Origin: Candidatus Latescibacterota bacterium
GTDB lineage: Bacteria; Latescibacterota; UBA2968; GCA-2709665
Reading direction: 5' to 3'
DNA: 64,000 nt
Assembly: GCA_965222075.1 (NCBI GenBank)
Contig: OZ244937.1
Coordinates: forward strand, 3,200,001 to 3,264,000
Position numbers and translations under genes: made by a program
Notes under the pieces: model-generated
Seen by the model: the letters and a program-made list of their open reading frames with translations, nothing else
The model's database searches: none
Told to the model about the DNA's origin: nothing
Shown: one piece after another, positions 29,826 to 48,892 of the stretch
Position numbering within the stretch: position 1 is the first letter of the stretch
Layout: each line of letters begins with the position of its first letter

Positions 29826-30012
29826 GCACGCCGGATTCGGGAGCCCCTTGCGAGGCGTATGGAACCTGCATCGGTCCGACGGTGCCCGTGGGAGGGCGAG
29901 ACCTGCCGGCGTCCGCGTTACAGCCAGACGCCCGCGGTTCGATCCGGCGGCTTTTTTCGGGCGCGGACGTTCAGTCTCGAAAGGCCGACAAGACGCGGAT
30001 CGAACCGTTTTG

Positions 30013-32541
30013 TCATTGGTTATTCTGTCGTTGCGTGGGGGCGACCGAGGAAAGCGGCAGGGTCACGCGCATGGTCGCTCCCCTTCCGGTTCCCTCGCTC
30101 AACGGCTGAATGCTCCCTCCGAGGGCAATGACAAAATTGGCCGCGGAATGGAGACCAAGCCCGCTCCCCGATTCTTTCGTCGTGTAACCGGGTGAAAAAA
30201 GCACCCTGGTGTCCTGGTTGCCGATGCCGATGCCGTTGTCGATCACCTCAAGGTAGAGAGATTCCGATCCGGCGCTGGCCCTGATCCGGATGCGGGGCGT
30301 TTCGTCGAGTCCCTGCGCGGCGGCAAGTTCATCGATGGCTTCGAGCGAATTTTTGACCAGGTTGACCAGCATCTGGTGAAACTGGCTCTCCTGGATGCAA
30401 ATCTCCCGCGGCGCATCTTCACAGTCGACGGTTACCTGGATGCCCCTCTTGTTGATGGAGTCCCTCAACACCCTGACGGCGCCCGAGAGCGCGTCGTGCA
30501 GGTCCACATCCTTGCGATCCATGCTGCTGGGACTGGCGAGCGCCTTCTGCGTGCGGACGATATCGGCGATATGGTTGGCCCGGTCCCGGACGCGGGCCAC
30601 GGTCTTCATCAGCTCTTCGTTCCGGCTGGAGAGGCTTTCCGCGAGTTCGACGATGAACGGCATCACCTTGCGGCCCTGAGGGTCGTTCGCGATATAGTCG
30701 ATCCAGTCCTCCCGGTGCGCCCGCACCGCCGCGGCCAGCGCGAAGAGACGGCGTACCACCGGGTCGTTCACCAGGTTGCGGCGCACGGTCTCGATGCCCG
30801 TGGTGACGCTGTTGATCGCGTTGCCGATGTTGTGGAGAATGGTATCCACGATCTCCAGCCGCCCCTGCGCGAAGGCTTGCGCCAGCGCCTCCTCGGCCAG
30901 CACGCGCTCGGTGACGTCGCGGAAAATGATCACCCCGCCCCCGACCCCGCCGATCTTGTCGAGCAGCGGCCGGGCGCTCACCCGGATATACACGCCGGCC
31001 GGTCGGTTGCGGTTGCGGATGAACACGTCCTCCTCGTCCACCGATTCGCCGTGGTGGATGGCGCGGACCAGCGGCAGATCCTCCGTTTTCATCGGTGTTT
31101 TACGGTTGGGATGGTAAACGCCGTATTTTTCGGCCCACTCATCCAGCGGCCCATCCTTTATGCCCATACCGACGATCTGTTCGGCGCCGGGATTGACGTA
31201 GAGGAATTCCCCTTCCGCATTGGCGACGATGATGCCGTCGCTGATGCTGCTGAAAATGGTCTCGATGAGCCGGGCCTGTTCCTGCTGCAGGGCGCGCGTC
31301 CGTTCCAGCTCGGCCTCCGCCTGCTTGAGCCTGGTGACGTCGCGGATGACGACCATGCCCCCCCCCGGAGCGCCCGGACTGCTCACCAGGGGCCTGCCGG
31401 TGACAGTGATGTAAACCCCTTCCGGCCTCTGCTCGTTGCGTATGAACAGCTCGACCCCGTCGGTGGCCTGGCCCTTCACCGCCAGCAGCAGCGGATTCAG
31501 CTCTTCGCTGAGCACCGTCTTCCCATCGGATTGAAAAACGCCGTAGGTCAGGGGCCAACGGGCGATATCTTTCTCCAGCGGATGATCGCCGCCGATCCGG
31601 CGCCCGCTCGAATTGTGAAACAGAAGCGACCCGTCTTCTCCCATGGCGACCACGCCCTCGCCCATGCTGTTCAGCAAGGTGCCCAGGAGCTGGGTCTGGT
31701 TCCGCTGCAGGGCGAGCGTCTGTTCCAGCTCGGCCTCGGCCCGCTTGAGCCTGGTGACGTCGCGGGCCACCATCAGGGCCTTCGCAGAACCCGCTCCATC
31801 CGGCAGGGGACTGCAGCGGAGGCTGAGATAAAAGCCTTCCGGCTTCTGCTCGTTGCGTATGAACAGCTCGATCTCGTCAGGGGTCTTGCCTTCCAGGGCA
31901 GGGATCAGCGGAAGATCCTCCACGGTGCAAAGCGTTTTTCCATCGGATTTGAAGATGCCGTATTTTTCGGCCCATTTGTGGATGTCCTTTTCCCTCGGGT
32001 CGCCGCCCATCCGCACCACGCGCGAATTGTAGAAAAAGGGCATCTTGTTCTCGTCGAAGGCGATCACGGCCTCGTTCATGCTGTTGAACATGGCTTTCAG
32101 GAGCCGGGTGAGATCTTTGTACTTGCCGATGATGCGTTTCAACCTGGCCTGCGTCCCCCTGTGCCTGCGGTCCCTCTCGTGCATGGAGACGGCGGTTTTG
32201 ATGTTCAGGTGCAGTTGGCGCGGGTCGAACGGCCTCAGCACGTAGCCGAACGGGTGGGTCGCCTGCGCCCGCTGCAACAGATCCCCCTCAACTTCGTCGG
32301 TCAGGTACACCACCGGAACATCGAATCGGCTGCCGAGACGCTCGGCCACTTCCGGGCCGGTCACCTCCCCTCCCAGCCCGAGATCCACCAGGGCCAGGTC
32401 GGGACGCTGGTCCCCGGCTATTTCAACAGCCTCACGCCCGCTCGAGACCGCAGCGCATACCGTATATCCCAGGTTTTTCAGGCATGCTTCCAGGTGTGCG
32501 GCGCCGTCGTCTTCCACAATCAGTATCTTTGTGCTGGTCAT
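30013..32541 (-). CDS. Hybrid sensor histidine kinase (REC, 3x PAS, HisKA-like, HATPase)
   Basis: LIVEDD, three PAS repeats, LHNIGN, NLVKNS, DNGIG, GSGLGL. Confidence 0.93.
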   Translation of the reverse strand: MTSTKILIVEDDGAAHLEACLKNLGYTVCAAVSSGREAVEIAGDQRPDLALVDLGLGGEVTGPEVAERLGSRFDVPVVYLTDEVEGDLLQRAQATHPFGYVLRPFDPRQLHLNIKTAVSMHERDRRHRGTQARLKRIIGKYKDLTRLLKAMFNSMNEAVIAFDENKMPFFYNSRVVRMGGDPREKDIHKWAEKYGIFKSDGKTLCTVEDLPLIPALEGKTPDEIELFIRNEQKPEGFYLSLRCSPLPDGAGSAKALMVARDVTRLKRAEAELEQTLALQRNQTQLLGTLLNSMGEGVVAMGEDGSLLFHNSSGRRIGGDHPLEKDIARWPLTYGVFQSDGKTVLSEELNPLLLAVKGQATDGVELFIRNEQRPEGVYITVTGRPLVSSPGAPGGGMVVIRDVTRLKQAEAELERTRALQQEQARLIETIFSSISDGIIVANAEGEFLYVNPGAEQIVGMGIKDGPLDEWAEKYGVYHPNRKTPMKTEDLPLVRAIHHGESVDEEDVFIRNRNRPAGVYIRVSARPLLDKIGGVGGGVIIFRDVTERVLAEEALAQAFAQGRLEIVDTILHNIGNAINSVTTGIETVRRNLVNDPVVRRLFALAAAVRAHREDWIDYIANDPQGRKVMPFIVELAESLSSRNEELMKTVARVRDRANHIADIVRTQKALASPSSMDRKDVDLHDALSGAVRVLRDSINKRGIQVTVDCEDAPREICIQESQFHQMLVNLVKNSLEAIDELAAAQGLDETPRIRIRASAGSESLYLEVIDNGIGIGNQDTRVLFSPGYTTKESGSGLGLHSAANFVIALGGSIQPLSEGTGRGATMRVTLPLSSVAPTQRQNNQ

Positions 32542-32684
32542 CCTGTTCGCGTCCTTTCCGGGCTTCTCACGGAAGCGGGTGTACTGTCATCTGTCTCATT
32601 GCCAAACAAAAATAAGGAAATTCAGGCTTTGGACAAGGGAAATCAACCGATTCATGGATTGACCAGAGTTCACGGGTTTTTTTG

Positions 32685-32708
32685 GTAGGGGCGGTTCGCG
32701 AACCGCTC
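32685..32708 (+). repeat. GTAG-type REP
   Basis: GTAGGGGCGGTTCGCGAACCGCTC. Confidence 0.8.
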
Positions 32709-32739
32709 ACCCCGGAAAGCCCGGATTTGGGAAAAAACC

Positions 32740-32768
32740 TTGACAGAGGTGTCGGAATTTGTTAATCT
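32740..32768 (+). promoter_or_regulatory. Sigma-70 promoter P1 of the aromatic operon leader
   Basis: TTGACA-17 bp-TAATCT. Confidence 0.75.
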
Positions 32769-32814
32769 TCAGTATCCGGCCGATTGCTGAGCACCCTGTT
32801 TCCGGAGACGGAAC

Positions 32815-32910
32815 GTGATTCTCGCGGCATACGACAGCTTTTTCTGGCGCAGTTTTCGGTACTACCGGTATTACCGGCAGGCACAGGAGCGTTGTATGCC
32901 CACACTGTAG
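32815..32910 (+). CDS. Aromatic-rich attenuator leader peptide MILAAYDSFFWRSFRYYRYYRQAQERCMPTL
   Basis: GGAG 7 nt before GTG; 5 Tyr, 3 Phe and 1 Trp within codons 6-20; upstream of trpE. Confidence 0.82.
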   Translation: MILAAYDSFFWRSFRYYRYYRQAQERCMPTL

Positions 32911-32936
32911 GCGATCTTTTTCCAGACGATGAAACC

Positions 32937-32967
32937 AGGCCGTGGGCACTTGCTCACGGCCTTTTTG
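32937..32967 (+). terminator. Attenuator terminator hairpin
   Basis: AGGCCGTGGGCA-ct-TGCTCACGGCCT followed by TTTT. Confidence 0.85.
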
Positions 32968-32983
32968 CTTGAACCGAAATCGC

Positions 32984-33013
32984 TTGACAAATCCTGAAAA
33001 AGCCGCTTATTAT
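32984..33013 (+). promoter_or_regulatory. Second sigma-70 promoter P2 downstream of the attenuator
   Basis: TTGACA-18 bp-TATTAT. Confidence 0.55.
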
Positions 33014-33063
33014 AGCGACTTATGTCGATAGAATTCTTACAGTTATCCACATAGAGAACATCC

Positions 33064-34539
33064 GTGATCCAGCCCGATTTCAAGGCCGTGCGCAGGCTCT
33101 CCGAAGCGGGAGGGCTTGTCCCGATCTTCAGAGATATCCTGGGCGATACCAAAACGCCGGTCTCGGCTTATCTCAAAATCCGTTCGAAAAGCCCGCTCAC
33201 CTTCCTTCTGGAGAGCGTGGAGGGCGGTGAGAAGATCGGCCGGTACTCCTTTCTGGGCATCGAGCCTTTTCTGGTCTTTCGATCCCGTGGAAAACACGTC
33301 CGGGTTGAAGATCTGAAGCGGGGCGAAGTGAAAGCGTTTGAAAGCGACCCCATCGTTGAACTCCGTCGGCTTCTGGCGCAGTATCGTTCCGTGCACGTCA
33401 AGGGGCTTCCCCCCTTTACGGGAGGCGCGGTGGGATATGTGGGCTACGATGCGATCCGTCTGATCGAGGAGATTCCGGATCGCACGCAGGACGACCTGGG
33501 GCTGGACGATATTGTCCTCCTCTTTTTCGACACCCTCCTGGCTTTTGACAATATTCGGCACAAAATCCACCTGATCTCCAACGTCCACACGGATGGGGAC
33601 TTGAAGGCCAATTACCAGGAGGCCGCCGACCGCATCACCTCTCTGGAGGAGATCCTGAAGCGCCCGGCGGATATCGCTCCGAAGCGGGGCACGAGCGCCT
33701 GTGAGGTGCGGTCCAATACGGTGGTGGAAGACTACCTGGAGCAGGTGCGGCGCTGCAAGGACTATATTGTGGCAGGCGACATCTTCCAGGCGGTGCTTTC
33801 GCAGCGTTTTGAAACGGATGTGACCGTGGATTCGCTCGACATCTACCGGATGCTGCGGGTGGTGAACCCGTCGCCTTACATGTTTCACCTGGACCTGGAA
33901 GATCTGCAGCTTGTGGGGGCCTCTCCGGAACTGCTGGTGCGGGTGGAGGACGGCATCGTTCAGGTGCGCCCGATTGCGGGCACCCGCCCGCGCGGGGAGA
34001 CCGAAGAGGAAGACCGGGTGCTGGAGAAGGAACTGCTGGCGGACGAAAAAGAGCGCGCCGAGCATATTATGCTGGTGGACCTGGGGCGCAACGACGTGGG
34101 GCGGGTCTCGGACTACGATACCGTCCGGGTGACGGAGCGGATGGAGATAGAGCGCTATTCCCATGTGATGCATATTGTCTCCAACGTCAAGGGCAAGCTC
34201 CGAAAGGGTGTCGACGCCCTGGACGCCCTGTTCGCCTGCTACCCCGCGGGCACGGTTTCCGGGGCACCCAAGATCCGGGCGATGGAGATTATTGACGAAT
34301 TGGAGCCCACCCGGCGCGGGCCCTATGCCGGGGCGGTGGGCTACATCGATTTTTCGGGCAACATGGACACCTGCATTGCCATCCGGACAATGGTGGTCAA
34401 AGGAAGCAGGGTCTACGTGCAGGCGGGCGGCGGAATCGTGTTCGATTCGGTGCCGGAGAATGAGTACGAAGAGACGGTGAACAAGGCGAAAGCGCTGTTC
34501 CGGGCCGTGCAGGCGGCCGAACGGGGGGAACTACGGTGA
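33064..34539 (+). CDS. trpE: Anthranilate synthase component I
   Basis: [48 protein letters not shown]. Confidence 0.96.
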
Positions 34540-34549
34540 GGGTGTGCCG

Positions 34550-35113
34550 ATGATTCTGGTGATCGACAATTACGATTCGTTTACCTACAATCTGGTCCAG
34601 TACCTGGGGGAGTTGGGGGCCGATCTGGAGGTCTACCGGAACGATCGGATCACGCTGGAAGAAGTTGAGGGACTTGCGCCTGAGAAGATCGTGGTCTCGC
34701 CGGGACCCTGTACGCCCAACGAGGCGGGAATTTCGGTGGACCTGATCCGGACCTTTGCCGACAGGATTCCGATCCTGGGGGTCTGTCTGGGACACCAGGC
34801 GGTCGGCCAGGCCTTCGGGGGAAAGGTGGTGGGCGCGCCGACGATTATGCACGGCAAGGTCTCGGAGATCCAGCACGACGGCCGGACCATCTTCAAGGGG
34901 ATGTCCCAACCCTTTATTGCCACCCGCTACCACTCTCTGATCGTCGAGCGGGAGTGCTTGCCGGACTGTCTGGAGGTCTCCGCAGAGACCGAGGACGGAA
35001 CGGTCATGGGGCTGCGCCATCTGGAACTTCCCGTGGAGGGCGTCCAGTTCCATCCGGAGTCGATTTTGACCGTGGAGGGGAAACATCTCCTCAAGAATTT
35101 TCTGGACGCTTAA
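34550..35113 (+). CDS. trpG: Anthranilate synthase component II
   Basis: [26 protein letters not shown]. Confidence 0.95.
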
Positions 35114-35126
35114 GCAGGAGCCGGAT

Positions 35127-36176
35127 ATGACCATACAGGATGCGATTGCAAAGCTGATCGAGGGTGAGGATCTGACCCGCGAGGAGACCGTTGGGGCGAT
35201 GGACCGGATCATGTCGGGAGACGCCACGGATGCGCAGATCGGGGCATTTCTGGTCGCTTTGCGCCTCAAAGGAGAGACCGTGGAAGAGATTGCGGGGGCG
35301 GCGGAGGTGATGTGCCAGAAGGCGACCCGTATTGATACGCGGCATGAGGTGGTGGTGGATACCTGCGGCACCGGCGGAGACCATTCGGGCACGTTCAACA
35401 TTTCCACGGCGGCCGCTTTTGTGGTTTCCGGCGCGGGGCTGTGCGTGGCCAAGCACGGCAACCGGGCCATATCGAGTCTGTGCGGCAGCGCAGATGTGCT
35501 GAAGGCCTTAGGCGTGAATATCGAGGCTTCGCCCGAGACCGTGGGCCGCTGTTTGGACGAAGTGGGCATCGGCTTCCTGTTTGCTCCGGCGCTGCACGGC
35601 GCGATGAAATATGCGATCGGCCCAAGGCGTGAGCTTGGCATCCGCACCATCTTTAACGTGCTTGGCCCCCTGACCAACCCGGCGGGCGCCCGGAGACAGG
35701 TGGTCGGTGTGTACAGCGGAGGGTTGACCGAGCCCCTGGCCGAGGTCCTGGGGCGCCTCGGAGCGGAGCGGGCCTTTGTCGTGCACGGCTCGGACGGTCT
35801 GGATGAAATCACGCTGACCGGCGCCACACGGGTGAGCGAATTGCGCGATGGCTCGGCTTCCACGTATGAAATCACCCCCGAAGATTTCGGATTCTCCAGG
35901 GCCGATGCAGGAGACCTGAAGGGGGGAGATGCAAAGACGAACGCCGAGATCGTGCGCTCTGTTCTCAGCGGGGAGCCGGGAGCCAGGCGGGATATTGTGC
36001 TGCTCAATGCGGCTGCGGGCATTGTCGCCGGCGGCCTGGCCGGGGATATGTCAGGAGGGGTTGAGGCGGCCCGGCAGGCGGTGGATTCGGGGCGGGCGAT
36101 GGAGAAACTGGAAGGATTGAGAACAGCGAGCAGGGGCGGTTCGCGAACCGCCCCTACTTACCGGGGTAGAACCTGA
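35127..36176 (+). CDS. trpD: Anthranilate phosphoribosyltransferase
   Basis: [22 protein letters not shown]. Confidence 0.96.
36132..36157 (-). repeat. GTAG-type REP inside the trpD 3' end
   Basis: AGGGGCGGTTCGCGAACCGCCCCTAC, read as RGGSRTAPT. Confidence 0.85.
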
Positions 36177-36210
36177 AATGGCAACCCGGAACGGGATAAA
36201 GGAGGGGTCG

Positions 36211-37020
36211 GTGGGCACGATTCTGGATGAGATTGTGGCCTACAAGCGGCAGTTTGTGGCGAAAAGACGCGCGCGGGCGCCCCTTGAGGAGGTGCAGCAG
36301 CTTGATGAATCGGCCCCAACGCCTCCCTCTTTTTTTGAGAGCCTCATTGAAGGGGACGATGTTGCGATCATCGCCGAGGTGAAGAAGGCTTCTCCGTCCA
36401 AAGGGATCATTCGGGCGGATTTCGATCCGGTGGCTATCGCAGAGATTTACGAGCGCAACGGGGCCTCGACGATTTCCGTGCTGACGGATGAGAAGTACTT
36501 TCAGGGGGCGGATGCGTATCTGACCCGGGTGAGCAGCGCGGTGGACCTTCCGGTTCTTCGGAAGGATTTTGTGATTGATGCCTACCAGATCTACGAGGCA
36601 AGGGCCATCGGCGCTGCGGCCGTGCTCCTGATTGCGGCGATTCTTTCACGCGTTGAACTGGAAGATTACCTCGAGCTCTGCCGTGAGGTCGGCCTGGATG
36701 CCCTGGTGGAGGTCCATACCGGGGACGAGGTTCGAACCGCGCTTGACTCCGGGGCCGATATTGTGGGGGTTAACAATCGGGATCTCAGGACGTTTCAGGC
36801 CGATTTGCAGACGACGCTGAGGCTGATGGACGATCTTCCCGAGGATCTGGTCATTGTCAGTGAAAGCGGCATACATACACGGGACGATGTGGTTCGGCTG
36901 CGCGATGCCGGCGCCGATGCCGTTCTGGTGGGCGAAAGCCTGATGCGTGAGCCGGATATCGGCCTCAAGCTACGAGAATTGCTGGGGAAGGAAGGCCCTG
37001 ATTCGCCATGGTTCGGGTGA
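36211..37020 (+). CDS. trpC: Indole-3-glycerol phosphate synthase
   Basis: IAEVKKASPSKG, LRKDF, GVNNRDL, SESGI; alternative start 36178. Confidence 0.95.
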   Translation: MGTILDEIVAYKRQFVAKRRARAPLEEVQQLDESAPTPPSFFESLIEGDDVAIIAEVKKASPSKGIIRADFDPVAIAEIYERNGASTISVLTDEKYFQGADAYLTRVSSAVDLPVLRKDFVIDAYQIYEARAIGAAAVLLIAAILSRVELEDYLELCREVGLDALVEVHTGDEVRTALDSGADIVGVNNRDLRTFQADLQTTLRLMDDLPEDLVIVSESGIHTRDDVVRLRDAGADAVLVGESLMREPDIGLKLRELLGKEGPDSPWFG

Positions 37021-37625
37021 AGATCTGCGGGATTACGAACCGGGAGGACGCGCGCTGTGCGGTCGAACACGGGACAGACGCCCTCGGATTTATCTTTTTC
37101 CCGCCAAGCCCGCGCTACATTCGGCCCGAACAGGCCCGGGAGATTATCCGCGGCCTGCCGCCGTTCGTGACGCCAGTGGGGGTTTTTGTGAACGAAGACC
37201 GGGAGCGGATCGCGTCTGTCGCAACCTCCACCGGCCTGCGGGCGATCCAGCTCCACGGAGATGAATCCCCCGAAGAGTGTCGGGGGCATGCGGTGCCGGT
37301 GATCCGGGCGCTGCGGGTGGGCAGGGGGTTCGACCCTGCCGCGATGGAAGCTTACCCGGTTGAAACCTTTTTGCTGGACACGGCCAGGCCCGGACTTTAC
37401 GGCGGGACAGGCGAGACGTTCGACTGGACATTTGCCAGGGCGGGGGCTGCTTACGGTCGGATCATCCTCTCAGGCGGCATCAATCCCGAAAACGTGACCG
37501 AAGCGATTCGCTCTGTAAGCCCCTATGCAGTGGATTGCGGCAGCGGGGTTGAGGCCGAGCCTGGGCGAAAGGATCACGAAAAGGTGGCGGCGTTTTTCCA
37601 GGCGGTTAGATTGTTTGAGGAATGA
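37008..37625 (+). CDS. trpF: Phosphoribosylanthranilate isomerase
   Basis: VKICGIT, QLHGDE, GGTGETFDW. Confidence 0.95.
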   Translation: MVRVKICGITNREDARCAVEHGTDALGFIFFPPSPRYIRPEQAREIIRGLPPFVTPVGVFVNEDRERIASVATSTGLRAIQLHGDESPEECRGHAVPVIRALRVGRGFDPAAMEAYPVETFLLDTARPGLYGGTGETFDWTFARAGAAYGRIILSGGINPENVTEAIRSVSPYAVDCGSGVEAEPGRKDHEKVAAFFQAVRLFEE

Positions 37626-38845
37626 ATATGTCGAAGTCGATCGCTGAACAGGTCGCTATTTTGATGCACGGCGTAAAATATGGGGATCAGCAGCTTGCGG
37701 AACGGATGACCGAGGAACTCCGGGAACGCCTGGCCGAGGGGCGTCCTCTGAAGGTTTACTGCGGCTACGATCCCACAGCTCCCGATATCCACTTAGGGCA
37801 TACGGTGACGATGCGGAAGCTGCGCCAGTTCCAGGAGTTGGGGCACGAAGTGACCTTTCTCATCGGGACCTTCACCGGCCAGATCGGGGGAGATCCTTCG
37901 GATAAGGACAGTGTCCGGTCCCAGCAGACCCCGGAGCAGGTCGCTGAAAATACCCGGACGTATGCGGAGCAGGCGTTCAAGATTCTGGACCGGGAACGGA
38001 CGATCGTGCGTTACAATGCCGACTGGTTGAGCGGGCTTTCTTTTGAGGAGGTGATCCGGCTTGCTTCCTACTTTACCGTGCAGCAGTTTCTGGCCCGGGA
38101 CAATTTCCGCAAACGGTGGGACGCCAAAGACCCGATCTGGATGCACGAGTTTTTTTATGCGCTGATGCAGAGCTACGACGCGGTGATGCTGGAGACTGAT
38201 GTACAGCTTGGCGGTACGGAGCAGCTTTTTAATCTGATGGCAGGGCGAAAGTTGCAGGAGGCTTTCGGTCAGCGCCCTCAGGTCTGTATCGTTATGCCGA
38301 TCCTGGTCGGCACGGACGGCCACATGCGGATGAGCAAGTCTACCGGGAACTATATCGGCGTGGATGAGCCGCCCGGGGAGCAGTACGGGAAGGTGATGAG
38401 CCTGCCCGACGAGGCGATGTCGAGCTATTTCAATCTGGTGACGCCCTGGTCGCTTGAGGAGATTGCCGGCCTGGAGAAGGATCTGGCCGAGGGGCGCCTG
38501 CACCCGATGGAGGCCAAGCACCGACTTGCCCGGGAGGTTGTGGAGATTTTCCACGGCGGAGAGGCTGCGGACCGGGCCAGGGCACGCTTCGAACAGCTAC
38601 ACCAGAAGCGGGATCTCCCCCAGGATATGCCAAGCTTTGCGCTGAGTGAACCGATGAAGTTGCTGGACCTGATGGTCGCATCCGGCCTGGCGCCCAGCAA
38701 GAGCGAAGGCCGGCGGCTGATCCAGCAAGGGGGCGTGCAACTCGACGGCCAGCGCATCTCTGATTTGAACTCCGTGGTGAAAATAGACGGGGCTTCCGTA
38801 CTTCGGGTGGGAAAGCGCCGGTTCCTCCGGCTGGAGAGGGCATAA
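37622..38845 (+). CDS. tyrS: Tyrosine--tRNA ligase
   Basis: YCGYDPTAPDIHLGH, MSKS, C-terminal S4 domain (VGKRRF). Confidence 0.95.
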   Translation: MNMSKSIAEQVAILMHGVKYGDQQLAERMTEELRERLAEGRPLKVYCGYDPTAPDIHLGHTVTMRKLRQFQELGHEVTFLIGTFTGQIGGDPSDKDSVRSQQTPEQVAENTRTYAEQAFKILDRERTIVRYNADWLSGLSFEEVIRLASYFTVQQFLARDNFRKRWDAKDPIWMHEFFYALMQSYDAVMLETDVQLGGTEQLFNLMAGRKLQEAFGQRPQVCIVMPILVGTDGHMRMSKSTGNYIGVDEPPGEQYGKVMSLPDEAMSSYFNLVTPWSLEEIAGLEKDLAEGRLHPMEAKHRLAREVVEIFHGGEAADRARARFEQLHQKRDLPQDMPSFALSEPMKLLDLMVASGLAPSKSEGRRLIQQGGVQLDGQRISDLNSVVKIDGASVLRVGKRRFLRLERA

Positions 38846-38884
38846 TTGGAAGATAGAACGCGTTTGCCGGCTCGGCTTCTGCGA

Positions 38885-39085
38885 CTCCCCCGCTTTGGTG
38901 TGGGGGGAAGGGGCTTTTCCGCGCGGTTCCGTCCACCGCCTTCGCCGCGTGAATCCATAAACGCTCGCAGGGCAGAAGCTTCCGCTTACACCCCAGGGGC
39001 TATTCGCGGAAAAGCAGCCCCCGCGGCGTTTGAGCGGCGCCCTTCTTTTTCGGCCTTTTTCTTGGGCGAACAAGAAAAAGGCCAA
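38885..39085. repeat. Repeat family A, uninterrupted copy
   Basis: GGGGCTTTTCCGCG...CGCGGAAAAGCAGCCCC long-range IR and GGCCTTTTTCTTG-GGCGAA-CAAGAAAAAGGCC hairpin shared with 8405-8770. Confidence 0.85.
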
Positions 39086-39169
39086 GAACAAAAGAACAGT
39101 TGAACCTGAGTATCTTACCGAAAGGCTATTTTCTAAACAGCAGTAGCTTCTATGGGAAAGGGTAGACGC

Positions 39170-40393
39170 ATGCCAGAGGTCAACCCGACAGAAGCAACAG
39201 GGACTCTCCCCGACGGGGGCGGACATTTTGGGCCCTACGGAGGGCGCTATGTACCCGAGACGTTGATGGCCCTCCTGGAGGATCTGGAGGCGGCCTACCG
39301 GGAGGCAAAAGACGATCCGGCGTTTCAGGCCGAGCTTGAGTATTACCTGCGGGAATTCGTGGGCCGGCCCACGCCGCTTTACTTCGCGCGGCGGCTGACC
39401 GGGGAGCTGGGAGGCGCCAGGATCTACCTGAAGCGGGAGGACCTGGCGCATACCGGGGCGCACAAGATCAACAACACGATGGGGCAGATCCTGCTGGCGA
39501 AGCGGATGGGGAAGACGCGGATTATCGCAGAGACGGGCGCGGGGCAGCACGGGGTGGCCACGGCGACGGTGGCGGCCATGTTCGGGCTGGAGTGCGAGAT
39601 CTTTATGGGGACCGAAGATATGGAGCGGCAGGCGCTCAATGTCTTCCGGATGCGCCTGCTGGGGGCGAAGGTAACCGGGGTGGCGTCGGGCAGCCGGACA
39701 CTCAAGGACGCCATCAACGAGGCGATTCGGGACTGGGTAACCCATGTGGAGACGACCTTCTATATCTTCGGATCGGTGCTGGGACCGCACCCCTATCCGA
39801 TGATCGTCCGGGATTTCCAGCGGGTGATCGGCGTGGAGGCCCGGGTGCAGGTACTGGAGGCGGAGGGGAGTCTGCCCGCCTGCCTGATCGCCTGCGTGGG
39901 GGGAGGGAGCAATTCGATCGGACTCTTCCACGCCTTCCTGGAGGATTCGGGTGTCCGGATGATCGGCGTGGAGGCCGGGGGACGGGGGATCGCCACCGGC
40001 GACCATGCGGCCCGGTTCCAGGGGGGGGACCTGGGGGTATTGCACGGGGCGCGCATCTACCTGCTCCAGGACGGCGACGGGCAGATTGCCCTGACCCACT
40101 CGGTGTCGGCCGGGCTGGACTATTCGGGGGTGGGGCCGGAGCACTGCTACCTGCGGGACCGGGAGCGGATCGACTATACCTATGCCACGGACGAGGAGGC
40201 CCTGGAGGCCTTCCAGATGCTGAGCCGGACGGAGGGAATCATTCCGGCGCTGGAAAGCGCGCACGCGGTCGCCCACGCCTGCAAGGTGGCGGCGCAGATG
40301 GACAGGGAGGAGGTCCTGGTCGTCAACCTCTCCGGGCGGGGAGACAAGGACGTGCAGCAGGCGGCCGGCTTTATCAAAGAGAGTGAAGGGTAG
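39170..40393 (+). CDS. trpB: Tryptophan synthase beta chain
   Basis: [32 protein letters not shown]. Confidence 0.97.
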
Positions 40394-40398
40394 ATTCC

Positions 40399-41214
40399 AT
40401 GTCACGAATTTCGGATGCGTTTGCCCGTCTGAAGCAGCGGGGGCAAACCGGGTTCGTCGCCTATATCACGGCCGGCGATCCCGACCTGGAAACCACCCGG
40501 GCACTGGTTCTGGAACTGGAGCGTTGCGGGGTGGATATTCTCGAACTCGGGGTTCCGTTTTCCGATCCCTTAGCGGACGGACCCGAGATCCAGAGGGCCT
40601 ACCAGCGGGCGCTGAGGCACGGGATATCTCTTGCAGACGTTCTGGACCTGGTAAGCGACCTCAGAAAAGAGACCCGCATCCCGATCGTTCTGTTTACCTA
40701 TTACAACCCGGTCCACCGTTACGGGCTGGAACGCCTGGTGGACCGGGCGGCGGAGGTGGACATCGACGGGATTCTGGCGCTGGACCTCCCTCCTGAAGAG
40801 GCGGGGGATTACAAGCGGTTGATGGACGCGCGCGGCCTGGATACGATCTTTCTGATTGCGCCGACCAGCCGGGACGACCGGATTCGCTTGATTTCGTCCT
40901 GCACCACCGGATTTGTCTATTATATCTCTCGCACGGGGGTCACCGGAGAGCGGGAGCGGCTTGCGGATACGGTTCGGCCGATGGTGGAAAAGATCCGAAG
41001 CCATACCGCACACCCGATCGCCGTCGGCTTCGGGATTTCAAAGCCCGAGCATGCGAAAGAAATCGCCGGATACGCCGATGCGGTGGTAGTCGGCAGCGCC
41101 ATTGTCCGCCGCATCGGGGAGAAAGAAGGAGACACGGACCTGGTCTCCCACGTCGGCGACTTTGTGAAGAACCTGGTCCGGCCGCTGAAGGAGGAAAGGC
41201 ATGGAAATCGATGA
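40399..41214 (+). CDS. trpA: Tryptophan synthase alpha chain
   Basis: ELGVPFSDPLADGP, GVTG, VGFGIS. Confidence 0.97.
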   Translation: MSRISDAFARLKQRGQTGFVAYITAGDPDLETTRALVLELERCGVDILELGVPFSDPLADGPEIQRAYQRALRHGISLADVLDLVSDLRKETRIPIVLFTYYNPVHRYGLERLVDRAAEVDIDGILALDLPPEEAGDYKRLMDARGLDTIFLIAPTSRDDRIRLISSCTTGFVYYISRTGVTGERERLADTVRPMVEKIRSHTAHPIAVGFGISKPEHAKEIAGYADAVVVGSAIVRRIGEKEGDTDLVSHVGDFVKNLVRPLKEERHGNR

Positions 41215-41473
41215 CTGGCGAAAAAAAATTGATGAACTGAATGGCAAGCTGCTGGCGCTCCTGAACCAGAGAGCGCAATGTGCCCTGGAGATCGGGAAGA
41301 TCAAGCAGGCTACAGGCCAGCCGGTCTACGCCCCGGACCGGGAGACCGCGGTGCTCAACCACATCCGGGAGATGAATACGGGGCCGTTGAGCAACGACGC
41401 TGTTCAGCGGATCTTTCGACAGATCATCGATGAGTCCCTGCGCCTGGAACGGGAACACGGGGAGGGTGGATAG
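41201..41473 (+). CDS. Chorismate mutase (AroQ type)
   Basis: RKKIDEL..LLNQR..IGKIK..PDRE. Confidence 0.88.
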   Translation: MEIDDWRKKIDELNGKLLALLNQRAQCALEIGKIKQATGQPVYAPDRETAVLNHIREMNTGPLSNDAVQRIFRQIIDESLRLEREHGEGG

Positions 41474-41492
41474 GGTGTTGGCCCGCTTCCGG

Positions 41493-41643
41493 GCCTCCGA
41501 CTGTAGCGCAAACTGTTCGTTTGCGCAATAAGAACACGGGGGAATAGATATCACGTTCTTCTCACCCCCCCACAAACTGACAGTTTGTGCTACGACACCC
41601 CTCCCATAAACGGACAGCTTGTACTACGACCCGCTCGCTTTTT
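41493..41643. repeat. 151-bp direct repeat DR1 containing three GTAG REPs
   Basis: 3 mismatches versus 42833-42983. Confidence 0.95.
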
Positions 41644-41699
41644 GGAGGGTGTAACCGGCCCCGTTTTGGTCGATATATTCAGGGCAAGGAGTACGAGAA

Positions 41700-41900
41700 A
41701 TGACAAGTGTCACGGAAATTCAGCAAGCGATTCTATCCCTTCCCGAAGACGATTATCTTCAATTGAAACAATGGTTTAGCGAGCTGGACTGGGAAAAGTG
41801 GGACCGGCGGATTGAAGCGGATTCAAAAGGCGGAAAATTGGATTTCCTGACTGCCGAAGCCTTTGAAGCCAAAGAGAAGGGCAGGCTCAAGGAACTTTAG
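41700..41900 (+). CDS. Putative antitoxin
   Basis: 66 aa, EIQQAILSLP...WDRRIEAD..GKLD, directly upstream of a RelE-like toxin. Confidence 0.7.
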   Translation: MTSVTEIQQAILSLPEDDYLQLKQWFSELDWEKWDRRIEADSKGGKLDFLTAEAFEAKEKGRLKEL

Positions 41901-42107
41901 ATGCACCGGACAACACCCCGCTTCCGGGCCCACTTTGAGCGACTCCCGGAATCTGTCCGAAGGGTTGCGAGACGGAATTTCCGCCTGCTCAAGGCAAACC
42001 CAAGGCATCCCTCTCTTCACTTCAGGAAAGTCGGCAAGTTTTGGTCGGTCCGCACGGGACTTTCTCACCGGGCGCTCGCCGTTGAAGTAGAACGAAATGA
42101 CAGATGA
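41901..42107 (+). pseudogene. RelE/ParE-like toxin, apparently 3'-truncated
   Basis: NPRHPSLHFRKVGKFWSVR..HRALAV; the usual terminal WIG.H..Y segment is absent. Confidence 0.65.
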
Positions 42108-42871
42108 GCCACTTTGACTACAAACCGTTCTATCGCCGCAACCTGCCACATATACAGCCGCCCGGTGCAACCTTCTTCGTCACGTTCCATCTTGCAGGTT
42201 CCCTACCGCGGACAGTCTTGCAACAATGGGCAACGGAGAAAGACCAGCTCGAAACAGAAAAATTGCGCCTTGCTAAGTTGCGAAGTAACATTCGTTTTGC
42301 CTCAGCAGAACACATTACACTTGAGAAAGAACGTGAACATCGTGAGTGGGAATGGCAACGACGGTGGTTCCGGAAATTTGAAACAACGCTAGACAAAGCG
42401 CAAAGTGGGCCCGTGTGGCTCAAAGATGAGCGAATTGCTAAAGAGGTGGCAGAGAGCCTACGCTACCGGGACGGAAAAGTGTATCGCCTGGATGCCTACT
42501 GTATCATGGCCAATCACGTACACATTGTGTTTGCACCCCTTGTGATGCAACCTTCCGTAACGCAACCTGACAGCTTGCAGGACAATGCGACCAAAGCGGA
42601 CAATTTGTGCTACAACTCGCTTTCCTCGATTATGCAATCGCTCAAAGGCTATACAGCGTGGAAAGCAAATACGCTATTGGGGCGACATGGGCCATTTTGG
42701 CAGCACGAAAGTTACGATCGAAGTATTCGGCATGCAAGTGAATGGGAGCGGATTATAACCTATGTTCTCAACAACCCGGCAAAAGCGGGTTTGGTGGATC
42801 ATTGGGAAAAGTGGCGTTGGAGTTATTACCGAGCCTCCGACTGTAGCGCAAACGGTTCGTTTGCGCAATAA
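42104..42871 (+). mobile_element. REP-associated tyrosine (Y1/HUH) transposase, RAYT
   Basis: RRNLPH, FFVTF, IMANHVH (HUH), FWQHESYDRSIR, YVLNNPAKAGLV; flanked by REPs. Confidence 0.9.
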
Positions 42872-42983
42872 GAACACGGGGGAATAGATATCACGTTCTT
42901 CTCACCCCCCCACAAACTGACAGTTTGTGCTACGACACCCCTCCCATAAACGGACAGCTTGTACTACAACTCGCTCGCTTTTT
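42833..42983. repeat. 151-bp direct repeat DR2
   Basis: Copy of DR1; contains the RAYT stop codon. Confidence 0.95.
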
Positions 42984-43002
42984 TACGGAGACGATTGAAA
43001 CC

Positions 43003-44031
43003 ATGGGTTTTCAGCGCATCAAAACGCTTCCGAGCCCCGATGAGATTCGGGAAGCGATCCCCCTCTCCGGTGAGATCGCAAAGGTGAAGCAGAGGCGGGA
43101 CCGGGAGATCCAGGCCATTTTCGAGCGAAAAAGCGACAAATTCCTCGTTGTGATCGGACCGTGTTCGGCACACAATGAAGATGCGGTTTGCGAATACGTG
43201 GCGCGGCTGGCCAGGTTGCAGGAGGTGGTCGAAGAGCGGCTTCTGCTTGTGCCGAGGATTTATACCAACAAGCCCCGGACGACCGGGGAAGGCTACAAAG
43301 GGATGGGGCACCAGCCGGATCACCAGAAGGAACCCAACATTGCCGAAGGGATCTATGCGATTCGACAGATGCACCTCCGGACGATTCGAGAGTCCCACCT
43401 GACAGCGGCCGACGAGATGCTTTATCCCACCAACCTCCCCTATGTGGAGGACGTGCTGAGCTACATCGCAGTGGGCGCCCGGTCGGTGGAAAACCAGCAG
43501 CACCGTTTAACCTGCAGCGGCGTGGATGTCCCTGTGGGAATGAAGAATCCCACCGGCGGGGATATATCGGTGATGCTGAACGCAATTTATGCCTCACAGA
43601 TCCCTCACGTGTTTATCTACAATGGGTGGGAGGTGAGTACGTCCGGGAATCCCCATACCCACGGGATCTTGCGGGGAGCCGTGGATTCCTACGGCCGGAG
43701 TATTCCGAATTACCATTATGAAGATCTGATTTATATGGCGGAGGCGTATCTGGAGCACGAACTGGCGCATCCCGCGCTGATTGTGGATTGCAACCACAAC
43801 AATTCGAACAAACACTACGCCGAGCAGCCCCGGATCGGCATGGAGGTGATGCAGAGCCGCCGGAGATCCGACATCTTAAATGGGATGATCCGGGGGCTGA
43901 TGGTCGAGAGCTATCTGGTGGAAGGGTCGCAGAGCGTGGACGAAAACGTGTACGGGAAATCGATTACCGATCCCTGTCTGGGCTGGGAGGACTCCGAGGC
44001 GTTTGTGAAAGAGCTGGCGGAGGCGGTATAA
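43003..44031 (+). CDS. aroF: DAHP synthase, class I-alpha
   Basis: GPCS, KPRTT, GARS, GMKN, MVES, SITDPCLGW. Confidence 0.93.
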   Translation: MGFQRIKTLPSPDEIREAIPLSGEIAKVKQRRDREIQAIFERKSDKFLVVIGPCSAHNEDAVCEYVARLARLQEVVEERLLLVPRIYTNKPRTTGEGYKGMGHQPDHQKEPNIAEGIYAIRQMHLRTIRESHLTAADEMLYPTNLPYVEDVLSYIAVGARSVENQQHRLTCSGVDVPVGMKNPTGGDISVMLNAIYASQIPHVFIYNGWEVSTSGNPHTHGILRGAVDSYGRSIPNYHYEDLIYMAEAYLEHELAHPALIVDCNHNNSNKHYAEQPRIGMEVMQSRRRSDILNGMIRGLMVESYLVEGSQSVDENVYGKSITDPCLGWEDSEAFVKELAEAV

Positions 44032-44073
44032 TCGGGGGTCGGATAACAGATAGAGGTAACAGGGTAGCCCCAA

Positions 44074-45186
44074 ATGTCCAGTGATCAACCATTCTCACCG
44101 GAGCGAATCGCCATCGTCGGCGTTGGGCTGATTGGCGGGTCTCTCGGTCTGGCCTTCAAACGCCTCGGGATCGGGCGGGAGATTGTTGGGATCAGTCGGA
44201 TGGAGACTCTGGAGACGGCACAGGGGCTGGGCGTGATCGATGTCGGCTATCCGTATGAAGCGCTGGAGAGGGGTGTGCAGGCGGCCGATCTGGTTTTGCT
44301 GTGCACGCCGATTTCCCGCATCTTAAGCCTGCTTCCAGAGGTGCTGGCGAGCGTTCCCCAGGGTGCACTGGTCAGCGATGTGGGCAGCACCAAACGGGAG
44401 ATCGTTTCCCGGGCAACCTCGCTGGGACGCGGTGGGGTGCACTTTATCGGCGGACACCCGATGGCGGGTTCGGAACGAACGGGGGTTTCCGCGGCTGATC
44501 CCTTTCTTTTTCAAAATGCGATTTATGTGCTTACCCCAACTCCGGAGGTTCCCGAGGCGGTGTGCGACCACTTTGTGGATCTGGCCAAGCGGCTCGGCGC
44601 TCGGCCGATGCGTATGCACCCGGCGACACACGACCGGATCGCTGCGGCCGTCAGTCACCTGCCCCAGTTAATGGCCACGGCGCTGGTAGGCGAGATCGGC
44701 CGGCTGAACGAGGCGGACAGGCTGCCCTTGCAGATGGCCGCGGGAGGGTTCCGGGACATGACGCGGATCGCATCGAGCCCCTATGAGATGTGGCGGGATA
44801 TCTGCCAGACCAATGCAGAACCGATCCGCGAGATGATCGACCGATACATCGAAGCGCTCTGCGGCCTCCGGGAGAAGGTGGACGAGGGTGGGCTTGCAGA
44901 GGATTTCGCGTTTGCCAACCGGATTCGGAGCAGTATCCCGAAGGACTCCAAGGGGTTTTTGCATCCGCTGCACGAGATCCTGCTGGTTGTGGAGGACCGG
45001 CCGGGGGTGATTGCAAAGGTGGCGGACGCGCTGGCCGAGGCCGACATGAATATTGACGATATTGAGGTGCTCAAGGTGCGCGAGGGGGAGGGCGGGACGA
45101 TTCGTATGGGGTTTGATTCGCGGGAGACGGCAGAGCGGGCGGTCAGGATTCTGGAGAGGGTGGGATACCGGGTGCGGATGCGGTAG
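44074..45186 (+). CDS. tyrA: Prephenate dehydrogenase with C-terminal ACT domain
   Basis: GVGLIGGS, DVGSTK, GHPMAG, SHLP, DRPG. Confidence 0.93.
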   Translation: MSSDQPFSPERIAIVGVGLIGGSLGLAFKRLGIGREIVGISRMETLETAQGLGVIDVGYPYEALERGVQAADLVLLCTPISRILSLLPEVLASVPQGALVSDVGSTKREIVSRATSLGRGGVHFIGGHPMAGSERTGVSAADPFLFQNAIYVLTPTPEVPEAVCDHFVDLAKRLGARPMRMHPATHDRIAAAVSHLPQLMATALVGEIGRLNEADRLPLQMAAGGFRDMTRIASSPYEMWRDICQTNAEPIREMIDRYIEALCGLREKVDEGGLAEDFAFANRIRSSIPKDSKGFLHPLHEILLVVEDRPGVIAKVADALAEADMNIDDIEVLKVREGEGGTIRMGFDSRETAERAVRILERVGYRVRMR

Positions 45187-45206
45187 GGAATTGAAAATTG
45201 GGGACA

Positions 45207-46535
45207 ATGCGTAACGCGGGAGACTTGAAGACGGTGGCAGTGACAGGGCAGACGATGGAGGCAATACAGGGGCTTTCCGGAGAGGGTGACCTTCCCGGAA
45301 ATCCGGAGATTTCGCTGATGGCGCTTGCGCTTGCGGCAAAGGCGGAGGGAGTGTCGGAGATTTGCCGGTGTTCACGGCGGCCCGATGTGGATGCCCTGGT
45401 GGACGCTCTGACGCGGTTCGGCCTGGCGGTTGAGCGGGGGGAAGAGGGGGTGAGGGTTACCGGTGGGGAGCTACAGGCGCTGGAGGGACCGCTCGATGCG
45501 GGGCGGTCGGAGGTCCTTTTCGCCTGTCTGACCGGGCTGCTGGCGGACGCGCCCTTCCAGTCGCAACTGGACGGGAATGCCGCCTGCGCTGCCCGGATCG
45601 AGCCCGTACTGGAGGCGCTGCGCGCCCTGGATGCCCCGATTTTTACACCGGCCGAAGGCATTTTTCCACTCAAGGTGGGCGGCCGTGCGTTAAAGCCGGG
45701 GCGGCACCAGGGCGGGGTGCCCAGTACGGCGGTTAAGTGCGCGGTGTTCCTGGCCGGGCTGGGGATCGAAGGTGCGGTCGAGTTGATTCAGGAGGCCCCG
45801 GGCGACGAGGACCTGGAGGTCCTGTTCAGGGCGGCGGGGGCGACGCTGGAGAAGGGGCGGGTTGAAGGAGGAATGGGGCACCGGATTGCCCTGGAAGGCC
45901 CTGTGCGCGTGCAGCCGGCCTGCCACGACGTTCCGGGAGATCCGACCGCGGCCCTGTTTTTGCTTCTTACGGCGGCGATGCTGAAGGGGTCGGAACTGAC
46001 GCTGAACGGGATGGGCAACAATTGGAAGGCCCGCCGGATGCTGGACCTGCTCCGCCGGCTGAACGTCCAGCTTGAGGTCCAGGTGACCCGGTCCGCGTCG
46101 GGTTTCTCCACGCGCCGGGTGCGCGTGGTGGGCTCCGAACTCCGGCCGATCAAGATCTCGGACCCGCAGGCGGCCCTCTTTCTAAACGAGCTTCCTTTCC
46201 TGGCGGTTGTGGGTGCCTGCGCCGGGGGGGAGACCATTATCCGGGACGCTCAGGCCCTGCGGCAGGGAAAGACCGATTGCATTGCCCTTGTGGTGGAAAA
46301 TCTCCGGAAGATGCAGGCGCACGTAGGTGAAATTCCCGATGGTCTGGTGGTGCAGGGAGGGCTTCGGCTGCAGGGGGCCGAGGTGGATGCCGGCGGGGAT
46401 TCCCGGATTGCCATGGCGTTCACGCTGGCAGGACTGGTTGCCGAAGGGGAGACGACGGTTTTGAATCGAGGGCAGATGGACCGGGATTTTTTCGGGGTTA
46501 TGGAAGCGCTGTTATCCGTTGCGCAAATCACATAA
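45207..46535 (+). CDS. EPSP synthase (AroA) homologue with degenerate active site
   Basis: AroA-like length, VPGDP and GDSRIAM, operon position; most catalytic residues substituted. Confidence 0.8.
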   Translation: MRNAGDLKTVAVTGQTMEAIQGLSGEGDLPGNPEISLMALALAAKAEGVSEICRCSRRPDVDALVDALTRFGLAVERGEEGVRVTGGELQALEGPLDAGRSEVLFACLTGLLADAPFQSQLDGNAACAARIEPVLEALRALDAPIFTPAEGIFPLKVGGRALKPGRHQGGVPSTAVKCAVFLAGLGIEGAVELIQEAPGDEDLEVLFRAAGATLEKGRVEGGMGHRIALEGPVRVQPACHDVPGDPTAALFLLLTAAMLKGSELTLNGMGNNWKARRMLDLLRRLNVQLEVQVTRSASGFSTRRVRVVGSELRPIKISDPQAALFLNELPFLAVVGACAGGETIIRDAQALRQGKTDCIALVVENLRKMQAHVGEIPDGLVVQGGLRLQGAEVDAGGDSRIAMAFTLAGLVAEGETTVLNRGQMDRDFFGVMEALLSVAQIT

Positions 46536-46565
46536 GAAGCTTCTTACAAAACAGAGGAGAAGACC

Positions 46566-46706
46566 ATGAGGCTGATGATCCGACTTGCCCTCCTGACGGC
46601 CCTGTTTTTACTGGGAGGCGTTGTGTTCATCCGGTATACCTACGGCTGTTCGTGGAAGGAAAGTTTCGGAATTGCGAACCAGTTTGTGTCTGATCTCGTC
46701 GGTTAG
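46566..46706 (+). CDS. Small 46-aa single-TM protein
   Basis: GAGGAG RBS, MRLMIRLALLTALFLLGGVVFIRYTYGCSWKESF...; fills the gap before aroE. Confidence 0.65.
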   Translation: MRLMIRLALLTALFLLGGVVFIRYTYGCSWKESFGIANQFVSDLVG

Positions 46707-46718
46707 GGAGCAGGGCCT

Positions 46719-47579: not shown

Positions 47580-47581
47580 CC

Positions 47582-48319: not shown

Positions 48320-48367
48320 TCGGGAAGCGAGGGGGGGAGTCATTCGCTTTCGAGGGCCACGCACAGT

Positions 48368-48853: not shown

Positions 48854-48892
48854 GGCAGATCGTCTTCCCGTTACACGCTCTGGAGATATGCC

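Follow-up and report, generated by a model that had tools for sequence, protein, structure and literature searches.

How would a bacterium that keeps genes for the tryptophan branch, the tyrosine branch and the common aromatic pathway in one cluster, together with a tyrosyl-tRNA synthetase gene, adjust their transcription to amino acid supply? The question is raised by a stretch of 64,000 nucleotides (nt) from a Candidatus Latescibacterota bacterium (GenBank assembly GCA_965222075.1, contig OZ244937.1, positions 3,200,001 to 3,264,000), here called the window, in which trpE, the first gene of such a cluster, is preceded by a 31-codon open reading frame (ORF) rich in aromatic codons and by an intrinsic terminator. 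That the core of this leader region is a transcription attenuator is, as a reading of sequence, well supported by its anatomy together with its conservation across the order. Taken over all of its variants, we regard an attenuator as very probable, and to the specific proposal that the element is a classical leader-peptide (ribosome-mediated) transcription attenuator, working as described below, we assign a probability of roughly 0.6.

Anatomy of the trpE leader region

The leader region comprises the following features, given in window coordinates and all on the plus strand; the helices refer to the minimum-free-energy (MFE) fold.

32740-32768, +: promoter P1, by direct reading (-35 at 32740-32745, 17-nt spacer, TG at 32760-32761, -10 at 32763-32768)
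32804-32807, +: Shine-Dalgarno sequence GGAG, 7 nt 5' of the leader GTG
32815-32910, +: leader ORF, GTG start, 31 codons, TAG stop at 32908-32910
32826-32842, +: segment 1, the 5' strand of the 1:2 hairpin, spanning codons 4-10
32885-32903, +: segment 2, spanning codons 24-30; 32885-32900 pairs with segment 1 and 32897-32903 with segment 3
32942-32948, +: segment 3, inside the terminator 5' arm
32937-32967, +: intrinsic terminator (3:4), stem 32937-32962, U-tract 32963-32967
32984-33013, +: promoter-like P2, between the terminator and trpE, matching 11 of 12 σ70 consensus positions
33027-33045, +: conserved untranslated motif 3' of P2, including an 8-bp palindrome

The leader ORF contains five Tyr, three Phe and one Trp codon, with five Arg codons interspersed, and nine of the fifteen codons from 6 to 20 are aromatic (Tyr6, Phe9, Phe10, Trp11, Phe14, Tyr16, Tyr17, Tyr19 and Tyr20). 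Under the genome's own amino acid usage, in which aromatic residues make up 8.2% (Phe 3.94%, Trp 1.46%, Tyr 2.80%), an aromatic content of at least 9 in 31 has P = 6.4e-4. Across the six frames of the 5.36-Mb genome there are 83 stop-free 15-codon windows with at least eight aromatic codons, 45 of them in frames of at most 90 codons; the seven of the 83 that we inspected had no attenuator layout and no aromatic genes behind them. The hexamers of P1 are TTGACA (-35) and TAATCT (-10), with a TG two bases 5' of the -10; this promoter was not picked up by a consensus promoter scan and was identified by reading the sequence.

The MFE fold of 32790-32975 (-68.6 kcal/mol, z -3.15, with 0 of 200 shuffles as stable) contains both the 1:2 helix, in which 32826-32842 pairs with 32885-32900, and the terminator, whose stem has 11 pairs (8 of them G-C) and a loop of 4, followed by a run of T; folded alone (32925-32975), the terminator reaches -22.6 kcal/mol (z -5.1). 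An exact 7-nt complementarity between 32897-32903 and 32942-32948 provides the antiterminator (2:3), and the leader stop codon sits 5 nt past the antiterminator strand. The locus therefore presents the features by which this class of attenuator is recognized, namely an ORF with a Shine-Dalgarno sequence and a start codon, aromatic enrichment, a terminator ahead of the first gene, an antiterminator that shares a strand with that terminator, and a stop codon placed to mask segment 2. A first-pass annotation of this DNA had already called P1, the 31-codon ORF with its nine aromatic codons in fifteen, and the three helices, and each lies where it had been placed, the 1:2 helix and the terminator being present in the MFE fold and the 7-nt 2:3 complementarity being exact. 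The attenuator of mutually exclusive helices that it proposed ahead of trpE is well supported by this anatomy and by conservation across the order, and the downstream P2 that it reported is likewise present and recurs in several genera.

In the mechanism that we propose, transcription would start at P1 and a ribosome would load on the leader ORF. When charged tRNA-Tyr, tRNA-Trp or tRNA-Phe is scarce, the ribosome would stall at the aromatic codons between 6 and 20 and keep the 1:2 helix open, leaving 32897-32903 free to pair with 32942-32948 once the latter has been made; the antiterminator would then occupy the 5' arm of the terminator, and RNA polymerase would continue into trpE and the genes that follow. 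When supply is good, the ribosome would reach the stop codon and its footprint would cover 32897-32903, such that the terminator stem (32937-32962) would form and transcription would end in the U-tract. Were the leader not translated at all, the 1:2 hairpin would sequester segment 2, and termination would again be expected. We infer translation of the ORF and stalling of the ribosome from these sequence features.

Folding under ribosome constraints is consistent with the two principal states of this switch. With a 30-nt footprint placed on codon 6, 9, 10 or 11, and with the transcript cut before the terminator 3' arm, the antiterminator fold is obtained. When the footprint covers the stop codon, the terminator 5' arm stays unpaired in the window, and in 29 relatives only 0-5 nt of it are paired, in agreement with the first-pass claim that a ribosome at the stop masks segment 2. 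Folds restricted to the RNA lying 3' of a stalled ribosome gave, in 24 of 29 relatives and for most aromatic codons, a pairing of 7-13 nt between the terminator 5' arm and the final leader codons. In four loci of genus g6 and in L019 the strict antiterminator criterion was reached for no codon, another upstream partner or a wider pairing span being favoured there. Folds of cut transcripts in which any upstream partner of the terminator 5' arm was counted failed to separate the states.

A search of 30000-50000 with Rfam cmscan (E up to 1) matched the leader to no riboswitch, T-box or leader family, the only hits in that interval being two chance microRNA models at 38892-39096. Nor does the genome, which is 97.6% complete, contain a match to the gene for TRAP (TrpBP, PF02081), for which the B. 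subtilis control was positive. Within segment 2, an AGGAG (32885-32889) lies 6 nt before an in-frame ATG (32896) and gives a 4-codon mini-frame inside the leader; it is found only in genera g1 and g4 and is probably incidental to segment 2.

Conservation across the order

Simple scan counts are not significant on their own (one promoter against 0.4 expected, one terminator against 1.0 expected), so the weight of the case comes from conservation. trpE is present in all 41 related genomes, which represent two families and nine genera, and an aromatic-rich frame lies 5' of it in 29 of the 30 loci with 1.5 kb of flank; at the single exception the contig ends 140 nt upstream. With five further genomes that carry the leader, it is kept in 34 of the 35 related genomes inspected, and conservation was one of the points on which the first-pass annotation had beforehand said that its proposal could fail. 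A covariance model built from 29 leaders and run on 151 genomes sampled from the phylum gave hits in 18 of 18 genomes of the window's family (f1), 29 of 30 of the sister family (f2) and 2 of 2 of f4; by this model, 47 of 48 further genomes from the window's order carry the element. Both f4 hits are real leaders that stand before trpE-trpG with a P1, a terminator and a P2-like site. Weak hits were obtained in f3 (2 of 64) and f9 (1 of 6); the weak hits L188, L189 and L190 were inspected and are not leaders.

An automatic rule, which required a Shine-Dalgarno-like 4-mer 4-16 nt before an in-frame ATG, GTG or TTG, called a start in 34 of 38 loci, giving leaders of 25-35 codons; three of the four uncalled loci have weaker Shine-Dalgarno sites and one is truncated. 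The 34 called leaders each contain 1-5 Phe, 1-2 Trp, 3-6 Tyr and 3-9 Arg codons. All leaders preserve the reading frame, and the one alignment gap within the leader that we checked is 9 columns long, a multiple of three. Among 12 sequences of genus g2, free variation in the N-terminal third accompanies a fixed aromatic core, in which four of the six always-aromatic columns change codon yet stay aromatic. The run formed by Tyr19, Tyr20 and the following Arg codon is conserved at its wobble positions too, and so, across the order, is the antiterminator strand.

In an alignment of 29 terminators, 96.9% of cells are paired and four pairs (14 cells) have changed on both sides, a level of covariation that 0 of 500 shuffles reach, with slid controls giving 31-54% pairing. 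In the 1:2 helix, one G-U pair is replaced by A-U in a sister genus. The antiterminator is paired in 91.6% of cells, and in the sister family its register has moved by one base alongside a longer terminator loop; its support comes from nucleotide conservation and not from covariation. The alignment of trpE upstream regions that had been suggested as a check thus returned conserved Phe, Trp and Tyr codons and four compensatory pairs in the terminator, but no covariation in the antiterminator.

The -35 of P1 is found at the matching place in 14 of 15 relatives shown (as an exact TTGACA in 12), with a similar TG-extended -10. A P2-type -35 is present in 8 of these 15 (genera g1, g3, g4, g5 and g9; one with a single base changed), as well as in L060, L185 and L186, and was not seen in the four g2 and three g6 loci among the 15. 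At L016 no more than a few tens of bases separate the end of the terminator from trpE. The motif at 33027-33045 is near-identical in g1 and g5 despite differing flanks, TrpE being about 75% identical between them, and it may be an operator or an element of the 5' untranslated region. The genome contains no second exact copy of 33031-33053, of 33034-33047 or of P2, and consequently no regulon can be inferred.

Leaders of related or similar appearance were also encountered elsewhere. A pattern scan of genome contigs yielded at least 120 stretches; among the 80 loci examined, 14 have this leader family, two have a different aromatic leader and the rest are unrelated. The public labels of the 14 carriers are inconsistent, being Latescibacterota (11), uncultured bacterium (1) and, for L059 and L109, which have a g2-type leader, Gemmatimonadota. 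The two loci with the different leader, L050 and L121 (from metagenome-assembled genomes labelled Desulfacinum and Desulfosoma, respectively), have Phe/Tyr runs and one Trp codon followed by two tandem terminators, the stems of which resemble the terminator arm of the window; their 8-kb loci contain no homologue of the window's 15 cluster proteins at E 1e-8. Two further weak hits of the covariance model are separate short frames. In L187 (G054, from another class of the phylum), a leader-like ORF at about 130-420 with four Trp, two Tyr and two Phe codons, followed by a terminator, precedes not trpE but genes for a DUF4139/DUF4140 protein and a branched-chain-type ABC permease, and may be an aromatic-sensing attenuator on a transporter. 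In L191 (G028:C25), a Phe-rich frame of 41 codons has the same Val-Cys-Pro as its final codons and a terminator behind it, and stands upstream of a methyltransferase gene and a PhyH-family gene; this frame may represent a paralogous leader or resemble one by chance.

Amino acids probably sensed and the possible reach of control

Which amino acids the leader may sense is suggested by its codon content and by the genes behind it. Tyr codons, with a median of five per leader, are about six-fold above background, and strong enrichment is confined to Tyr (3-6 per leader against a 2.8% background). We judge sensing of Tyr and Trp likely and sensing of Phe possible. The genes concerned are the following.

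30013-32541, -: hybrid histidine kinase, divergent from the leader
33064-34539, +: trpE (Pfam)
34544-35113, +: trpG (Pfam)
35127-36176, +: trpD (Pfam)
36178-37020, +: trpC (Pfam)
37008-37625, +: trpF (Pfam)
37622-38845, +: tyrS (TIGR00234 match)
39152-40393, +: trpB (domain match)
40399-41214, +: trpA (domain match)
41201-41473, +: chorismate mutase (domain match)
42925-47579, +: DAHP synthase (AroFGH type), tyrA with an ACT domain, aroA and aroE (domain matches)

On the plus strand ubiE follows aroE. The cluster contains Trp-specific genes, the Tyr-specific tyrA and tyrS, and genes of the common pathway, but not pheA, which is found at another site, immediately after a different gene, and has no leader. 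Apart from the tyrS of the cluster, no gene in the genome passes the family cut-off for tyrS. Nine of 14 long loci keep, on a single strand, the order trpEGDCF-tyrS-(gap)-trpBA-chorismate mutase-DAHP synthase-tyrA-aroA-aroE-ubiE, two of the nine having no aroA hit; in the other five, some of the distal genes are missing. A largely similar order, with no DAHP synthase hit, is found in the two f4 loci. The slot after trpF is held by two types of tyrosyl-tRNA synthetase that are about 30% identical and both match TIGR00234 (window, 37622-38845; L031, 12628-13809; L037, 11666-12865), one type being shared by the window and g5 and the second occurring in most others, which indicates that the gene was replaced and its position kept.

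A comparison with family f3 bears on the relation between codons and genes. Two f3 genomes (L193 and L194) have their own trpE leader and terminator, and these leaders are Trp-dominated (3-4 Trp, 1 Phe and 1-2 Tyr codons), one having a run of three Trp codons and the other a run of two. The cluster of these genomes reads trpEGDC-(1 kb)-chorismate mutase-tyrA-aroA-aroE and is without tyrS and trpFBA, whereas 3-6 Tyr codons per leader occur in lineages whose cluster includes tyrS. These observations, from three tyrS-bearing families against two genomes of one family, fit a leader whose codon mix would follow gene content. More broadly, a single leader might integrate the charging of the Tyr, Trp and Phe tRNAs on behalf of the Trp branch, the Tyr branch, the common pathway and the sole tyrS, its codon mix having co-evolved with the genes behind it; we hold this larger picture tentatively, as a possibility somewhat short of an even chance.

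Co-transcription of the cluster is plausible from its layout, and we infer that control from the leader may extend to the whole of it. Two interruptions bear on this. Between tyrS and trpB there is a gap of 306 nt (38846-39151) with G+C-rich hairpins and a perfect 13-bp inverted repeat at about 39052-39083; in g2 and g6 this junction is occupied by an HMGL-like gene, and in g4 by genes for a DNA methylase and an MjaI-type restriction endonuclease, so that it looks like a hot spot for insertion and deletion. Between chorismate mutase and DAHP synthase, a 1.5-kb insertion (41480-42960) is flanked by two direct-repeat copies, each about 130 nt long, that begin at about 41488 and 42836. It contains small ORFs at 41700-41900 and from 41901, as well as a gene for a REP-associated tyrosine transposase (42104-42871), whose match to NF047646 falls below the cut-off. 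This mobile insertion may interrupt co-transcription. The listed TTG start of DAHP synthase, at 42925, falls within the second copy of the repeat, and the true start probably lies further downstream. As an essential gene present only once, tyrS requires some expression that escapes attenuation, and basal expression could come from P2, from internal promoters or from leaky termination.

Contigs from four metatranscriptome runs (X1-X4) of one study, in which ends, strand and level are unreadable and DNA is possibly present, cover part of this region. One of them, 32787-33100, spans the terminator, P2 and the start of trpE, a weak indication that the leader and the start of trpE can lie on one assembled RNA-library contig; others cover 32809-32996, 32860-33026, 32905-33067 and 32988-33224. 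The contigs begin no further upstream than 32787, and the figure for the leader contig is the higher one, 10 versus 2.8; neither observation is usable as evidence. The contig from X1 has A for G at 32859, a change that is synonymous in Arg15 and is probably a strain difference.

Several points weigh against a classical attenuator acting on the entire cluster. Support for translation, stalling and regulated termination is computational throughout, and the RNA evidence consists of contigs from one study that possibly include DNA. The antiterminator is short (7 bp), has 0 pairs changed on both sides and does no better than shuffles. With a footprint at Phe14 or at Tyr16-20, folding keeps the outer 1:2 stem around the ribosome, and antitermination from stalls at these codons, which may occur, rests on a steric argument. 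For RNA that is not being translated, sequestration of segment 2 is predicted in only 22 of 29 relatives, and its position is not constant across genera. Phe falls to a single codon in some leaders and is not enriched in these. P2, lying 3' of the attenuator, could bypass it, and this, together with the 306-nt gap and the mobile insertion, weighs on control of the whole cluster. Three claims of the first-pass annotation are narrowed in consequence. That the attenuator is trivalent agrees with the occurrence of all three codon types in every called leader, but strong enrichment is limited to Tyr and the presence of a codon is no proof of sensing. That a stalled ribosome covers segment 1 is upheld for codons 6-11, for which the ribosome-constrained folding that had been suggested gives the antiterminator, but not for Phe14 and the Tyr16-20 block; the latter lies in the loop between segments 1 and 2, where plain folding is indecisive. 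Control of a supraoperon is favoured by the conserved gene order and made less certain by the gap, the insertion and a P2 placed after the attenuator.

Among other explanations, the one that departs least from the proposed attenuator keeps its mechanism and restricts what it effectively senses to Trp and/or Tyr, the Phe codons and perhaps some Tyr codons being passengers of constraints on RNA structure or composition. With just 1-5 Phe codons per leader, and 1 in 35 in four members of g2, which is background, with pheA outside the cluster and without a leader of its own, and with a Tyr19-Tyr20-Arg run kept at wobble positions as expected for an RNA constraint, this idea has substance. It is also in line with the aroR leader of Corynebacterium glutamicum, which reads Phe-Tyr-Phe and for which a review reports no response to Tyr (PMC11802643). 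Yet all three codon types occur in 34 of 34 called leaders, aligned Phe-to-Tyr exchanges preserve aromatic identity, and Tyr6, Phe9, Phe10 and Trp11 all lie on segment 1, where the in silico switch is clearest; the common-pathway genes (DAHP synthase, chorismate mutase, aroA and aroE) moreover serve Phe as well. We consider the restricted version unlikely, albeit the strongest of the competitors.

Far less probable is a separation of the leader from trpE altogether, in which P1, the leader and a constitutive terminator would form a small unit of their own, whose product would be a small protein or a small RNA acting in trans, with trpE transcribed from P2. The near-consensus P2 between the terminator and trpE, recurring in several genera, invites this idea, and attenuator-derived small RNAs with functions in trans occur in rhizobia. 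Against it, no P2 is seen in 7 of the 15 loci shown (g2 and g6), where the leader unit has the only visible promoter, the terminator of L016 is close to trpE, the antiterminator complementarity and the placement of the stop codon are conserved, and the terminator is bridged by one RNA-library contig. To nascent-peptide arrest of the TnaC type, in which an aromatic-rich peptide with Cys-Pro near its C terminus would stall the ribosome on a free amino acid, we attach slightly less weight still: a Trp together with a conserved Pro that precedes the stop by two to three codons is reminiscent of TnaC, and the Cys-Pro pair is retained in nearly all leaders, but the Cys-Pro codons coincide exactly with the antiterminator strand and RNA pairing accounts for their conservation, which extends to the wobble positions, the N-terminal half of the peptide is variable, and the terminator and antiterminator fit the classical scheme without arrest. 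That the ORF is a chance frame beside the ordinary terminator of an upstream transcript is the least credible proposal, one to which we give almost no weight. A terminator scan does find as many sites in shuffles (1 versus 1.0), but the upstream gene is divergent, on the minus strand, which means that the terminator does not end an upstream gene; the ORF, Shine-Dalgarno sequence, frame and helices are conserved in about 50 genomes; and the aromatic content is itself improbable.

Relation to known attenuators

The closest model is trpL-trpEDCBA of Escherichia coli and Salmonella, for which the Yanofsky model was formulated and which Rfam holds as Trp_leader RF00513. Like trpL, the element described here has a promoter, a Shine-Dalgarno sequence, a short leader ORF with regulatory codons, mutually exclusive 1:2, 2:3 and 3:4 segments, a stop codon placed for masking of segment 2 by the ribosome, and a terminator just before trpE; the number of Trp codons, 1-2 per leader, is also like that of E. 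coli trpL. Unlike trpL, it does not match RF00513, it has one Trp codon beside five Tyr and three Phe codons, its regulatory codons are mostly in the 1:2 loop and not on segment 1, a second promoter follows the terminator, and tyrS, tyrA and common-pathway genes lie downstream. The characterised aromatic leaders trpL and pheL respond to one amino acid each. Multivalent leaders have been shown experimentally in enterobacteria, in ilvL (Leu/Val/Ile) and thrL (Thr/Ile), which resemble the present one in serving several amino acids that share regulated genes; those are branched-chain or aspartate-family systems, whereas multivalency here is suggested by codon content.

To our knowledge Latescibacterota have no cultured members, and our literature search found neither a Phe/Tyr/Trp leader nor any attenuator in this phylum, key older comparative papers being outside its scope. 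If the proposed attenuator is correct, it would be a first regulatory element for Latescibacterota, and a conserved leader of mixed Tyr, Trp and Phe codons before a cluster serving all three branches would show how one ribosome-based sensor can integrate several aminoacyl-tRNA pools. The position of the sole tyrS behind the leader would extend the logic of attenuation from biosynthesis to tRNA charging, and the shift of codon mix with gene content, with a Tyr block where tyrS is present, would constitute a natural comparative test. The mechanism is testable by codon swaps in a heterologous or cell-free system.

Two further comparisons concern individual parts of the arrangement. In C. glutamicum the aroR leader, with its Phe-Tyr-Phe codons, precedes the operon of the DAHP synthase gene aroF, and a review reports that transcription rises under Phe limitation and that Tyr has no effect (PMC11802643). 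The one mixed aromatic leader so far studied, aroR thus seems to respond to Phe only; it is like the present leader in that mixed aromatic codons attenuate an aromatic common-pathway gene, and differs in having three regulatory codons and no Trp and in heading aroF instead of trpE; it is not a sequence relative. That aroR is reported not to respond to Tyr means that the presence of a codon does not prove sensing. Aminoacyl-tRNA synthetase genes also lie behind leaders rich in codons for their own amino acid, as in E. coli pheM-pheST and the trpS and leuS attenuators of Streptomyces (PMC11802643, PMC1262725). tyrS behind a Tyr-rich leader is similar to these systems; there the leader is dedicated to the synthetase operon, whereas the tyrS described here stands sixth in a biosynthetic cluster and would share its leader with the genes around it. 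Set beside these systems, the element before trpE is a variant of a known attenuation mechanism and not a new mechanism.

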